Shown here: positions 21,627-57,769 of the stretch, in pieces
How positions within the stretch are numbered: position 1 is the first letter of the stretch
Layout: each line of letters begins with the position of its first letter
The notes under the pieces: model-generated
What the model saw: only the letters and a program-made list of their open reading frames with translations
Told to the model about the DNA's origin: nothing
The model's database searches: none
NCBI GenBank assembly: GCA_963755115.1
Contig: CAVWIK010000003.1
Coordinates: forward strand, 740,032 to 804,031
Origin: an uncultured Chloroflexia bacterium
GTDB taxonomy: Bacteria > Chloroflexota > Limnocylindria > Limnocylindrales > CSP1-4
Reading direction: 5' to 3'
DNA length: 64,000 nt
Translations under genes and position numbers: made by a program

Positions 21627-21644
21627 TATACTCCCCTGGAGTAC
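21627..21644 (+). promoter_or_regulatory. -10-like TATACT overlapping the inverted repeat TACTCC-N3-GGAGTA (copA-type operator copy)
   Basis: TATACTCCCCTGGAGTAC lies 30 nt upstream of the YHS ATG. It shares ATACTCCC and GGAGTA with the copA palindrome. Confidence 0.5.
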
Positions 21645-21673
21645 CGAGTCACTGGCAAATCATCGGAGACACC

Positions 21674-21847
21674 ATGGCCATCGAGATCGATCCCGTCTGC
21701 GGGATGGAGGTCGACACGGCGACCTCGGAGCTGTCGTTCGACTACAAGGGCGCGACCTACTGGTTCTGCGGCCGTGGTTGCCTGCTCGAGTTCAAGGACG
21801 ACCCGGCCGCGTACCTCCCCGCGGACGATCCGGCGCCCACCGCCTAG
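21674..21847 (+). CDS. YHS-domain (TRASH-like) metal-binding protein, 57 aa; not in the ORF track
   Basis: MAIEIDPVCGMEVDTATSELSFDYKGATYWFCGRGCLLEFKDDPAAYLPADDPAPTA*. SD GGAG 6 nt upstream. Confidence 0.75.
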   Translation: MAIEIDPVCGMEVDTATSELSFDYKGATYWFCGRGCLLEFKDDPAAYLPADDPAPTA

Positions 21848-21909: not shown

Positions 21910-22381
21910 ATGCCGGTCTACGCGCTGTGGTTCGGGGTGGCGCTCGCGATGCTCGTCCTCGAGCTCGTCAGCACGACGTTCTTCGCGATCTTCCTGGCGA
22001 TCGGGGCGTTCGCCGCCGGCGTGCTCGCCTTCGCATTCCCCGACACGGCGCTCTGGATCCAGGCGGTCGTCGCCATCGCGGTGGCGATGGCCGGCGTCGT
22101 CGTCGGCCGGCCGTTGCTCGCACGACGACTGCGCCGACATGGCGAAGGCCCGCTCACGCCCGGCGTCCACGGCGGGTTCGTCGGGCAACGCGTCCTCGCC
22201 CTCGATCGCGCTCGGCGACGAGCTCCATCCGGGGCACGTCCGCCTCGCGGGTGAGGTCTGGCTCGCCTTCTCCGACACGAACGAGCCGATCGCGGCGGGC
22301 GCACCCGTCATCGTGACCGCCGTCCACGGGACGACGCTCGCCGTCCGACCCGCGTCCGGGTCGCCGGTCCCGGAGGGTTAG
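21910..22381 (+). CDS. NfeD-family membrane protein; frame broken near nt 22200
   Basis: N-terminal TM helices (ORF 21499..22254 frame), then the OB-fold tail ..LGDELHPGHVRLAGEVWLAFSDTNEPIAAGAPVIVTAVHGTTLAV.. (ORF 22139..22381 frame). The stop abuts the SPFH start. Confidence 0.75.
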
Positions 22382-23332
22382 ATGGATACCGGTCTGATCG
22401 CGCTGGTCGTCGCATTCATCATCGCGATCCTGTTCATCCTCTTCGCGTTCTACCTGCTGCGGAACACCGTCAACCTGGTCCAGCAGGGGTTCGTCGGGGT
22501 CGTGACCCGGCTCGGCGAGTTCCGGGCGATCCATGAGCCCGGCCTGGTGATCATCGCGCCCTTCATCGATGCCCTGGTGACCGTCGACATGCGCGAGACG
22601 CCGCTGCCCGGCGATCGGCAGGAGGTCATCACCAAGGACAACGTCGTGGTCGCCGTCAACGCGACGATCTTCACCCAGGTCGTCGACGCGAAGCAGGCCC
22701 TGTTCAGCATCGCCCGCTTCGACGTCGCCATCGATGCGCTCGCCCGGACGGCGCTCCGCTCGGTCATCGGGACGCTCTCGCTCGACGAGGCGCTCTCGGA
22801 GCGCGAGCGGATCAACGTCGACGTCCAGGAGCAGATGGAAGCCGTCACGGACAAATGGGGGATCCGCATCAACCGGATCGAGATCGTCGAGATCACCCCG
22901 CCGCCGCAGATCCTCCAGGCGCTGGCCCTCCAGAAGCAGGCCGACCAGGAGAAGCGCGCGAAGATCCTCCAGTCCGAGGGCATCCAGCAGTCCGCGGTCA
23001 ACGTTGCCGACGGCGACCGCCAGGCCGCGATCAAGAACGCCGAGGGCGAGCGGCAGGCGGCGATCCTGCGGGCCGAGGGCGAGCGGCAGGCGCTGATCCT
23101 CGAGGCCGAAGGCCGGGCCCAGGCCATCTCGACGGTCTACAGCGCCATCACCGCGGCGAACCCGAACCCGACCCTGGTCGCGATCCTCCAGCTCGACACG
23201 CTCTCGAAGTTCGCGCTCAGCCCGAACACGAAGATCGTGATCCCCGCTGAGTCGGCTGCCCTGCTCGGCGCGGTCCAGGCGATCCAGTCGGTCCTCAGCC
23301 AGGTCCCGCCTGCGGAGGCGACGGGCGGCTGA
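22382..23332 (+). CDS. SPFH/band-7 (stomatin/slipin-like) membrane protein
   Basis: N-terminal TM helix, SPFH core, and a C-terminal coiled coil with AEGERQAAILRAEGERQA repeats. Confidence 0.9.
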   Translation: MDTGLIALVVAFIIAILFILFAFYLLRNTVNLVQQGFVGVVTRLGEFRAIHEPGLVIIAPFIDALVTVDMRETPLPGDRQEVITKDNVVVAVNATIFTQVVDAKQALFSIARFDVAIDALARTALRSVIGTLSLDEALSERERINVDVQEQMEAVTDKWGIRINRIEIVEITPPPQILQALALQKQADQEKRAKILQSEGIQQSAVNVADGDRQAAIKNAEGERQAAILRAEGERQALILEAEGRAQAISTVYSAITAANPNPTLVAILQLDTLSKFALSPNTKIVIPAESAALLGAVQAIQSVLSQVPPAEATGG

Positions 23333-27755: not shown

Positions 27756-27761
27756 TAGACT
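27756..27761 (+). promoter_or_regulatory. -10 hexamer TAGACT placed 6 nt before a GTG start (leaderless transcript predicted)
   Basis: TAGACT-cccgcg-GTG at 27756..27770. Confidence 0.4.
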
Positions 27762-54788: not shown

Positions 54789-55385
54789 TCAGCGCTCCGC
54801 CGAGGCCTCCGACTCCCGCACCGTGACGCCTTCGCGGCGCAGCAGGGCACGCTTCCGCGCGAGCGCCGCGTCGCGTGAGCCCCAGGCGTCGCCGCCGTAC
54901 CCGCCGATCGTCCCGTCCGCGGCGATGACCCGGTGGCACGGGACGAGGAGCGTCACGGGGTTCCGCCCGAGCGCGCCCCCGACCGCACGGGCGGCCCGCG
55001 GTGCGCCGATCCGGCGCGCGATCTCCCCGTAGCTCGCGGTCCGGCCCCACGGGATCCCGGCGACGGCGGCCAGGACCGACCGATCCCACGCCGGGCGGTC
55101 CGAGAGGTCGACCGGCACGGCCTCGGACGGGGGCCGGCCGGCGACCATCTCGCCGATGGCCCGCTGCGCCCGGTCGAGCAGCGCGTGCCGGGGATCGCCG
55201 GCCGGGGCGACGGCCTCGGGGAGCACGGCGCCGTCGAGACGGCGCTCGACCATCGCCGCGAACGCGTCATCGGTCATGGCCGACTCCGCGGCCGCGATGC
55301 CGCCGTCGGTCGCGGCGAGGTGGAGCGGGCCCCACGGGCCGGGGATGGTCCGGACGATCGCGCGGGCCGCCAGGGGATCGGTCAT
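54789..55385 (-). CDS. ogt: Methylated-DNA--protein-cysteine methyltransferase
   Basis: Active site LVPCHRVI. ..[28 protein letters not shown]... Start at [11 protein letters not shown]. The longer listed ORF is over-extended. Confidence 0.88.
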
Positions 55386-55419
55386 CGCGACCAGTGTGGC
55401 GGCGTCGGGCCCGGGTGAT

Positions 55420-55436
55420 ATACTCCCAGGGAGTAT
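55420..55436 (+). promoter_or_regulatory. Perfect 17-bp palindrome ATACTCCC-A-GGGAGTAT overlapping a TATACT -10 and the copA ATG (CsoR/RcnR-style operator candidate)
   Basis: 8-bp arms read directly. The palindrome ends within the copA start codon (55435..55437). Confidence 0.55.
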
Positions 55437-57769
55437 GTCGAACGTCGCCGCCGGCACCGCCTCCGCCATCGACGCACCGGCCGCCGGCGACCGCGTCGAA
55501 GTCGTGCTGCCGGTCGAGGGCATGACGTGCGCCTCCTGCGTGAACCGCATCGAGCGGTTCCTGCGCGGCACGGCCGGCGTGGAGGGCGCCACCGTCAACC
55601 TCGCGACCGAGACCGCGACGATCGTGTACCTCCCCGACATCGCGACCCGCGCGGACCTCGAGCATGCGGTGGAGGCCGCCGGGTACGAAGTCCGGGCACC
55701 CCGACCGCGCACGACGCCCGGAGCGGCCGCGCCCTCGACGATCCTCGCCGAGCGGACCGCCGACGACGTGGCCAGGGCCGGCGAGGCCCGGAGGACCCTG
55801 CTCCAGGCGGTCGTCTCGATCGGGGTCGCGTTCGGGATCATGCTGCTGATGGCCCTCCCGGCCGAGGCGCTCGGGATGGAGGCGCGGAACCTCATCGCCT
55901 TCGTGCCCGCGACGGTCGTCCAGGTGTGGGCCGGCCGGCGGTTCTACCGATCCGCGTGGCGGACCGCCCGCCACGGGACGAGCAACATGGACACGCTCGT
56001 CGCGATCGGCACGAGCGCGGCCTGGGCCTACAGCGTGGTCGTCACGTTCGTGCCGTCGGTCATGGAGGACGCGGGGCTCGAGCCGCAGACCTACTTCGAC
56101 AGCGCCGCGATCATCATCGGGCTCGTCCTGCTCGGCCGGTATCTCGAGGCCCGGGCCAAGGGCCGGACGGTCGGCGCGATCCGACGGCTCGCCGCGATGG
56201 CCCCCACGTCGGCCCTGCGCGTCGAAGGGGACCGCGACGTGGACGTGCCGCTCGACGCGGTCGCCGTCGGCGACCTGCTGCGGGTCCGACCCGGCGACAA
56301 GGTCCCGGTCGATGGGGTCATCGTGGACGGCGGCTCGGCCGTGGACGAGGCGTTGCTGACCGGCGAGCCCATCCCGGTCGCGAAGGGTCCCGGTGACGAG
56401 GTCATCGGCGCGACGCTCAACACCACCGGCACGTTCGTCATGCGCGCCACGCACGTCGGCCTCGACACGGCCCTCGCCCGGATCGTCGAGCTCGTCGAAC
56501 GCGCGCAGGGCTCGAAGGCCCCCATCGCCCGCCTCGCCGACCGCATCGCCGAGGTGTTCGTGCCGCTCGTCCTCGCGCTCGCGGCCGCGACCTTCGTCAT
56601 CTGGATGCTCGTCGGCCCTGAGCCGCGGCTGACCCACGCCCTCGTGGCCGCGATCACCGTGCTGGTCATCGCCTGCCCCTGCGCCATGGGCCTCGCGACC
56701 CCAACGGCCATCATGGTCGGGACCGGACGCGGCGCCGAGGCCGGCATCCTCATCCGGGGCGGCGAGGCGCTCGAGACCGCCCACAAGGTGTCGGCCGTCG
56801 TCCTCGACAAGACCGGGACGCTGACCCTGGGCCGTCCGGTCGTCGCCGACGTCCTCGCCGCGCCCGACTCGTCGGTCGCGACGGTGCTGGACGTCGCGGC
56901 GTCGGCCGAGGCCGGCAGCGAGCACCCGCTCGCGGCCGCGATCGTCGCGCGAGCGAGGCTCGATGAGCTGGGGTTCCTGCCGAGCGCCGGGTTCGTCGCG
57001 GACGCCGGGGGTGGCGTCGAGGCGACGGTCACCGGCGCCGACGGCCCGCAGGTCGTGCTGGTCGGCAGCGCCCGTTGGCTGACCGACGCCGGGGTCGACC
57101 TCGGTGGGCTCGGCGCGGCAGCCGACGACGCGGCCGCGGCCGCCCGGACCGCCGCCTTCGTCGCGGTCGACGGTCGCGCGATCGGCCTCATCGCCATCAC
57201 CGATCCGATCAAGGACGGGGCGGCGAGCGCCGTCGCTGCGCTCGAGCGTGCCGGGGTCGCGACCTGGCTGGCGACCGGGGACGGGCCCGCCACCGCGTCG
57301 GCCGTGGCCGGGGCCGTCGGCGTCCGCGCCGACCGCATCCTCGCCGACGCCCGACCGGCCGAGAAGGCGGAGCTGGTCGAGCGGCTGCGGGCCGACGGTC
57401 ACACCGTCGGCGATGGTCGGCGACGGCATCAACGACGCGCCGGCCCTCGCGGCCGCGGACCTCGGGGTCGCGATCGGGACCGGCGCGGACGTCGCGATCG
57501 AGGCGTCCGATGTCACGATCGTCGGGGGTGACCCGCGCGCCATCTCGACCGCCATCGCCCTGTCCCGTGCCACGATGACGGTCATCCGCCAGAACCTGTT
57601 CTGGGCCTTCGCCTACAACGTCCTGCTGATCCCGGTCGCGATGGGCGTGCTGTACCCGGCGTTCGGCATCACGCTGAGCCCCGCGCTCGCCGCCGGGGCG
57701 ATGGCGCTGTCGTCGGTGGCGGTGGTGCTCAACTCGCTGCGGCTCCGTTCCTTCCGGCTTGCCGCGTAG
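55435..57769 (+). CDS. copA: Copper-translocating P1B-type ATPase; frame broken near nt 57408
   Basis: GMTCASCV metal-binding domain, CPC, DKTGTLT. ..RADGHTV, then in another frame [19 protein letters not shown].. to the TAG at 57767..57769. Confidence 0.9.

Follow-up and report, generated by a model that had tools for sequence, protein, structure and literature searches.

A probable CsoR-type operator fused to the copA start in an uncultured Limnocylindrales bacterium, with matching boxes at csoR, YHS, trxB, dnaA and dnaG

CsoR of B. subtilis and CsoR/RicR of M. tuberculosis are repressors released from DNA by Cu(I), and to our knowledge their regulons comprise metal-defence genes only. The ligand set of their E. 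coli relative RcnR is H-C-H-H. With regard to the binding sites, the type-2 CsoR operators of streptomycetes have the consensus ATATACCCCTNAGGGGTATAT (PMC3902906), and CsoR operators from several phyla share a 5'-TAC-X9-GTA-3' dyad (PMC3902906, NAR 2013). In S. lividans, any base swap in the TAC/GTA dyad leaves no detectable CsoR binding, and the exchanges R57A and Q81A in the protein abolish DNA binding (PMC3902906).

Here we describe a site of this shape in a window of 64,000 nt, that is, the whole stretch of DNA analysed, from a Chloroflexota genome. The features around the site are as follows.

55435..57769, plus strand: copA, copper-exporting P1B-type ATPase (Pfam HMA, E1-E2_ATPase and Hydrolase; TIGR01511)
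54789..55385, minus strand: divergent gene for an O6-methylguanine-DNA methyltransferase (ogt/MGMT-like; PF01035, 108 bits)
55420..55436, no strand: proposed type-2 CsoR operator (TAC-N9-GTA at 55421..55435; conserved, chance excluded)
55416..55424, plus strand: extended -10-like element TG-A-TATACT, TGATATACT, of copA, deduced from conservation

A frame of 698 aa starts at the ATG at 55435 and encodes HMA, E1-E2 ATPase and HAD domains, and the product scores 425 bits against TIGR01511, the NCBIfam model of copper-translocating P-type ATPases (cut-off 397). As assembled, the frame is broken near 57410-57417, where ORF 55435..57531 passes into the frame of ORF 57104..57769, as seen by tblastn with the intact CopA of a relative. 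The palindrome reads ATACTCCC-A-GGGAGTAT (contiguous ATACTCCCAGGGAGTAT), with perfect 8-bp arms around a 1-nt centre, just as an earlier note on this DNA had described a 17-bp palindrome overlapping TATACT and the copA ATG. Positions 55421..55435 are TAC-TCCCAGGGA-GTA, the type-2 CsoR dyad, and the site as a whole, ATAC-TCCC-A-GGGA-GTAT, is a C-/G-tract pseudopalindrome between AT-rich ends. The promoter in which it stands is that of a copper-efflux gene, and the csoR promoter carries a box as well. The tracts of the copA site are 3 long and T/A-interrupted, weaker than those of ATACCCCC/GGGGGTAT; the interrupted and uninterrupted forms replace one another at orthologous sites. The broken G-tract (GGGAG) is a departure from most published operators.

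A near-copy of this site stands in front of a YHS gene in the same window.

21628..21644, no strand: second operator ATACTCCCCTGGAGTAC, an imperfect palindrome upstream of YHS (TAC-N9-GTA)
21627..21632, plus strand: TATACT -10-like hexamer over the left arm of the YHS operator, deduced from its conservation with the operator
21674..21847, plus strand: YHS-domain protein, 57 aa (PF04945, 56 bits; Shine-Dalgarno GGAGA at 21665..21669)
21910..22381, plus strand: NfeD (Pfam NfeD; frame break near 22100-22140)
22382..23332, plus strand: SPFH/Band-7 protein (Pfam Band_7)

The near-copy noticed earlier at 21627..21644 is indeed there: it reads TATACTCCCCTGGAGTAC, with arms TACTCC and GGAGTA around the centre CCT, 30 nt before the YHS ATG at 21674, and its positions 21629..21643, TAC-TCCCCTGGA-GTA, again form the type-2 dyad. 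Searched with up to 3 mismatches, the window gave 4 matches, from two sites each read on both strands, where shuffles average 0.03, and no third copy, in agreement with the earlier statement that the window holds no other full copy. The isolated ACTCCC half-site at 27759, which the earlier note also listed, is explained by chance: ACTCCC/GGGAGT has 14 occurrences in the window and 741 in the genome.

In the assembly as a whole (3.94 Mb, 71% G+C), TACTCC-N1-7-GGAGTA occurs 3 times, and the generalised pattern ATACYCCC-N-GGGRGTAT exactly 4 times, where our base-composition estimate gives about 0.002. Moreover, ATAC-N9-GTAT is found 9 times genome-wide against 0-5 among spacings N5-N13, and is the sole enriched spacing. 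The four strict copies per genome are all intergenic and stand at conserved orthologous positions. The TACTCC..GGAGTA match at C2:780034 was set aside as an operator; with its 7-nt spacer it reads TAC-N13-GTA instead of TAC-N9-GTA. It sits between two same-strand genes, just past a stop codon.

A repressor that could bind such sites was found outside the window, where the earlier note had expected a CsoR/RcnR-type gene.

C3:388014-388370, minus strand: csoR, 118 aa, PF02583, 95.5 bits (cut-off 22.8)

It is the one PF02583 gene in the assembly, which is 79.6% complete, so that a further regulator could be missing from it, and its position is on the window's own contig, about 352 kb upstream. 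Among PDB entries the protein matches S. lividans CsoR, 4ADZ, best (E 1e-18). Alignment to 4ADZ, 4M1P and 5FMN shows that the ligands Cys (YCVDIL), His and Cys (EDHVQGC) are kept, and that the protein has EGQ (Gln) where InrS has EGH, the extra N-terminal His. This x-C-H-C fingerprint without the N-terminal His of InrS/RcnR is what we take to be the Cu(I)-sensing type. The protein also keeps the RLxR motif and the Gln that contacts DNA (RRLSRMEGQ/DILQQT against KRLRRIEGQ/DILTQV). The best NCBIfam match is the RicR model (78 bits, below its cut-off), and the RcnR model gives 42 bits with a cut-off of 138. The csoR promoter carries the box ATACCCCC-A-GGGAGTAT about 50 nt before the ATG, one mismatch from the copA palindrome, which suggests autoregulation.

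Relatives were found via the CsoR protein; these MAGs of uncultured Chloroflexota bear the label Candidatus Limnocylindrales or Limnocylindria. Many of them come from the long-read Microflora Danica (MFD) set, and our literature search found no experimental study of metal regulation for this soil lineage. One to four strict sites are carried by 22 of the 24 same-genus genomes, and the reversed pattern, used as a control, gave 0 matches in all 41 genomes searched. The 51 strict sites of the 22 relatives fall at four loci only.

Spacer between csoR and its divergent neighbour: 18 strict sites
Between ogt and copA: 10 strict sites
Before the thioredoxin-disulfide reductase gene (trxB): 11 strict sites
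rpmH-dnaA spacer: 12 strict sites

The counts for single genes below come from targeted look-ups that allow a variable core and are hence above these strict counts. At copA, ATACTCC-NNN-GGAGTAT is present in 28/28 genus loci, with positions 1-7, 12 and 14-17 invariant. The csoR genes of Limnocylindria carry the motif in 79 of 80 loci. In many of them the layout is a TTGC-type -35, about 4 nt and the operator, whose last three bases begin a TATSAT -10; several relatives' csoR genes are probably leaderless, their ATG standing 6-7 nt past the -10.

The strict pattern missed the YHS sites because their 3' end is GTAC, not GTAT. When sought directly, TATACTCC-NNN-GGAGTAC was found before YHS in about 26/29 genus loci. 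YHS orthologues (70-82% identity) occur in nearly every genus genome, sharing a contig with copA at a distance of about 34-60 kb. The earlier note had proposed the YHS-NfeD-SPFH operon as a target, and the part that stands is the conserved, stand-alone YHS gene; NfeD and SPFH are not conserved partners. They follow YHS in this genome only, and in the relatives YHS stands alone with convergent genes directly after it. Four relatives have orthologous NfeD-SPFH genes (88-91% identity) with no YHS gene or operator upstream, and we therefore dropped the idea that the box is a general control element of NfeD-SPFH operons. The further prediction that both loci, copA and YHS, are CsoR-type sites laid over a -10 is supported by the TAC-X9-GTA fit, by conservation in the genus and by TATACT in both left arms.

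The copA site is closely interlocked with the start of its gene. The TATACT hexamer (55419..55424, with TG at 55416-55417) overlaps operator positions 1-5, and the copA ATG, 55435..55437, uses the palindrome's last two bases as its A and T. Among the genus copA loci, TATACT is kept in 25/28, preceded by TGn in 17/28, and in 20 of the 28 the palindrome's right end is fused to the ATG, with differing N-terminal residues; in the sister family the same fusion is also seen at csoR itself. A scan with the sigma-70 consensus found no full -35/-10 pair at the copA or YHS site, so the -10 elements are assigned from conservation only. The operator has T at position 5 (ATACT, not the commoner ATACC), probably because this T also serves as the final, invariant T of the -10. 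At csoR and trxB, whose left arm lies off the -10, C predominates on the gene-sense strand, and at dnaA both forms occur.

The distance from the end of TATACT to the copA ATG is 10 nt, which exceeds the 6-7 nt found in relatives at those trxB and csoR promoters that are clearly leaderless. From the 10-nt distance, copA transcription probably begins 3-4 nt before the ATG or at the ATG, and its start is likely at about 55431-55435. RNA from 55431 onward is predicted to be less structured than shuffles (z = +1.6), and such an unstructured RNA downstream of the embedded -10 would suit a leaderless copA start. The operator assignment fixes the copA start codon, and the same compact arrangement, with its predicted -10 inside the left arm and its ATG joined to the right end, recurs in the lineage. 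On the other side, ogt and copA have a 34-bp spacer and the operator in common, and the divergent pair is kept in the genus and the sister family. The right arm's bottom strand, facing ogt, reads CATACT, and ogt may be co-regulated with copA.

These observations, namely the excess of the motif, its conservation at orthologous promoters, a csoR gene with the ligand residues and the box at the csoR promoter, lead us to conclude that the copA palindrome is very probably an operator at which CsoR, a repressor that senses Cu(I), covers the core promoter of copA. From the sequences we infer CsoR binding, its release by copper, the -10 and start assignments and the outcome of repression as follows. 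At low copper, apo-CsoR would grip positions 55420..55436 through the C/G tracts and the TAC...GTA dyad, perhaps as two CsoR tetramers per operator by analogy with Streptomyces lividans. Bound CsoR would cover the extended -10, the transcription start and the start codon, and would thereby block the open complex of RNA polymerase. Cu(I) at the Cys-His-Cys site would cause CsoR to leave the DNA, and the freed copA would be transcribed as an mRNA that is leaderless or has a 3-4-nt leader, resulting in copper export. The same CsoR may bind the weaker copy over the YHS TATACT at 21628..21644, as well as its own promoter for autoregulation.

Among the other readings, the one that survives best is that the palindrome serves a different regulator, such as a CopY, ArsR/SmtB or MerR type or some other factor, and that its likeness to the csoR box reflects cross-regulation. 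The incompleteness of the assembly (79.6%) leaves room for such a protein, and CsoR would not usually be expected to have boxes at dnaA, dnaG and trxB. CopY boxes are TACAnnTGTA, MerR operators sit in 19-20-bp promoter spacers and ArsR operators are 12-2-12 repeats, all of them shapes that differ from the motif. Moreover, the motif accompanies 79 of 80 csoR genes, the recurrent boxes of the sister family stand only at csoR, copA and dnaA, and the motif obeys the CsoR-specific rule of TAC-X9-GTA plus a G-tract (PMC3902906). We consider a different regulator unlikely.

Another reading is that the palindrome acts as RNA, forming a hairpin at the 5' end of copA mRNA that sequesters the AUG and controls translation or stability. 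If the palindrome were fully transcribed, an 11-bp hairpin over the AUG would be predicted at -13.5 kcal/mol (z = -4.3). However, the conserved TGnTATACT within the left arm implies that only the right arm should be transcribed, and at trxB, dnaA and dnaG the motif lies upstream of the -35/-10, outside those mRNAs. The frequent sense form at csoR and trxB, ATACCCCC..GGGAGTAT, would give a C-A mismatch in the stem, and an Rfam search of the related dnaA-upstream region matched no family, with nothing near threshold. A hairpin of this kind is very unlikely to account for the site.

The symmetry could also arise with no bound protein, if copA used TATACT on the top strand and ogt used CATACT on the bottom strand as two -10 elements that face each other. 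The divergent ogt-copA pair is conserved, and the T/A variant is present in both arms of the copA site, each reading nATACT, as this arrangement would have it. It leaves the invariant C and G tracts unexplained, and the identical motif at csoR, trxB, dnaA, dnaG and YHS needs no divergent -10. Facing promoters are also compatible with CsoR binding, so they are no true alternative, and as the whole explanation we regard them as highly improbable. Finally, a chance match or the remnant of a mobile repeat, for which we found no supporting point, is refuted by the conservation and by the 4 matches in the window against a shuffle mean of 0.03, and may be dismissed.

Returning to the CsoR operator, the predicted regulon is wider than first proposed, with boxes also at trxB, dnaA and dnaG. 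The earlier note took occurrence at non-metal genes or at random positions to speak against a metal-responsive repressor; trxB, dnaA and dnaG are boxed indeed, but at fixed and conserved promoter positions, so this objection does not apply. In 30/30 genus genomes the dnaA promoter region consists of a full-strength box, exactly 11 nt, TTGCGR as the -35, 18 nt and TGCTATCCT, and the core of the box varies freely while ATAC/GTAT and the tracts persist. In the sister family (1.1-Mb genomes; DnaA 56% identical), the dnaA box stands about one helical turn further from the -35, at 23 nt upstream, and only three boxes recur per genome, at csoR, ogt-copA and rpmH-dnaA. All 20 readable dnaG loci carry a box, about 9-11 nt upstream of the -35; it is fused to TGACAA, and TTGACA-N17-CATNAT follows. 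The trxB layout is the operator, 8-9 nt, TGnTACGAT, about 6-10 nt and the ATG, so arranged that the box covers the -35 region, and the boxed trxB encodes the only thioredoxin reductase homologue found in the assembly.

Their sequence conservation sets the trxB, dnaA and dnaG boxes apart from noise. Those at dnaA and dnaG are centred near -57, which would be an activator-like or UP-element-blocking position rather than an occluding one. The GC skew of contig C3 was too weak to place oriC, and only one DnaA-box consensus was found, at C3:321946, after dnaA. In total each genome has six conserved boxes, of which three stand at essential housekeeping genes (dnaA, dnaG and trxB), and boxes at these genes suggest that CsoR is not simply a copper-efflux repressor and might integrate another signal. 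It is a real but tentative possibility, on which we would not yet rely, that the CsoR of Limnocylindrales is wired to chromosome replication and thiol redox control besides copper efflux. If so, copper status, or thiol stress via the same cysteines, could tune replication initiation. A search of titles and abstracts found no link between CsoR operators and dnaA or trxB. We know of no earlier case of a CsoR-family metal sensor feeding into replication-initiation control, and CsoR, if it occupies the dnaA, dnaG and trxB boxes, would be the first.

Of the described systems, S. lividans CsoR is the closest. It likewise has the Cys-His-Cys ligands, the RLxR motif and the contact Gln, its type-2 operators (csoR, copZA1 and copZA2) likewise have ATAC/GTAT ends, TAC-N9-GTA and C/G tracts, and there too a boxed csoR, autoregulated in that species, is accompanied by a copper ATPase target. 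On the other hand, position 5 (and 13) is here often T (A), giving ATACTCCC/GGGAGTAT in place of ATACCCCC/GGGGGTAT; no copZ was noted beside copA; a near-leaderless start is joined to the operator; the host belongs to the Chloroflexota, not the Actinomycetota; and the predicted regulon extends to trxB, YHS, dnaA and dnaG. B. subtilis CsoR, with its copZA operator, and M. tuberculosis CsoR/RicR are likewise members of the CsoR/RcnR family with G/C-tract pseudopalindromes that overlap copper-defence promoters, though in the M. tuberculosis operator, which is longer than the one here, the dyad is inverted (GTA...TAC). E. coli RcnR, a sensor of Ni/Co, is of the same fold family, and its operator TACT-G6-N-AGTA has a TACT...AGTA dyad with a G-tract, a likeness already pointed out in the earlier note, whereas the protein described here is x-C-H-C and its target is a Cu-type ATPase. 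A CsoR operator in Chloroflexota with good computational support extends a known kind of operator to a new lineage. Compared with these systems, the CsoR switch at copA is of an ordinary kind, and the boxes at the replication genes and trxB are the novel part.

The ogt-copA pair holds the palindrome of the window, a predicted CsoR-type operator of the form ATAC-N9-GTAT with C/G tracts.

54789-55385, minus strand: ogt/MGMT-like DNA-repair gene, divergent from copA
55420..55436: palindrome at the copA ATG (55435)

This divergent gene pair was found in the genus and also in the sister family, a separate group of relatives with 1.1-Mb genomes. Because the right arm of the palindrome reads CATACT on the bottom strand, the sequence suggests that ogt may share the copA operator, which would then be common to both genes.

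Boxes of the same type, and at dnaG a further palindrome, lie upstream of genes elsewhere in the genome.

C3:320229-320245 (outside the window): full-strength CsoR-type box, ATACTCCCGGGGGGTAT, in the rpmH-dnaA spacer
C2:1351733-1351749: ATAC-N9-GTAT box joined to TGACAA, 5' of dnaG
C2, about 1351805-1351835: near-perfect 9-1-9 palindrome, CTTGTCAAG-A-CTTGACAGG, in the dnaG 5' region, also present in the relatives' dnaG loci (L208-L233)
C4:23042-23058: predicted CsoR box, 5' of trxB, a thioredoxin-disulfide reductase gene

The box in the rpmH-dnaA spacer is situated 235 nt upstream of the dnaA ATG in the own genome, and is followed after 11 nt by TTGCGA and, 18 nt further, by TGCTATCCT. This arrangement of box and promoter is kept in all 30 genus genomes (30/30, L248-L277) and also in the sister family, where the gap from the box to the -35 is 23 nt. 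Moreover, the alignment revealed that a block 3' of the -35, CGGTGCTATCCTCTCCGGGCCCTCGGCGCCGGAGACG (C3:320270-320330 in the own genome), is almost unchanged throughout the genus. It includes a possible stem, CTCCGG/CCGGAG, and could be a structured element of the dnaA leader. The Rfam search of the dnaA-upstream locus matched no family.

At dnaG, the box and TGACAA are followed by TTGACA-N17-CATACT. The box is kept in 20/20 readable genus loci from L208-L233, and its core varies more than the cores at the other sites. The 9-1-9 palindrome is enclosed in a block of ~35 nt that hardly varies, GGGCTTGTCAAGACTTGACAGGCCCACAG, located between the promoter and the dnaG start. Conservation of this block exceeds that of the coding sequence, and it could serve as an operator or as an element in the RNA. 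Counted along with dnaA and dnaG, ogt would lend the putative regulon a flavour of DNA metabolism.

The trxB box, kept in 11 relatives, is located 8 nt from the downstream TGATACAGT and 24 nt from the ATG. The boxed gene scored 398 bits against TIGR01292 (cut-off 343), and no other trxB homologue was detected in the assembly.

With regard to the window genes, the reading frame of copA shifts at 57405-57420 as assembled, and its final ~115 residues, to which the conserved C-terminal part belongs, are encoded in the frame of ORF 57104..57769. A long-read indel is the probable cause, because the assembly comprises 4 contigs yet reaches just 79.6% completeness; alternatively, the break may be genuine and copA a real pseudogene. 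Similarly, NfeD shifts at 22090-22140: the membrane portion at its N-terminus, which begins at 21910, and the NfeD domain at its C-terminus, which extends to 22381, lie in different frames. Its orthologues are intact in 4/4 relatives.

Finally, the arrangement at copA is matched by that of csoR in the sister family (L237-L247), where the left arm of GATACTCTCAGGGGGT-ATG holds a -10-like GATACT and the right end is the csoR ATG.
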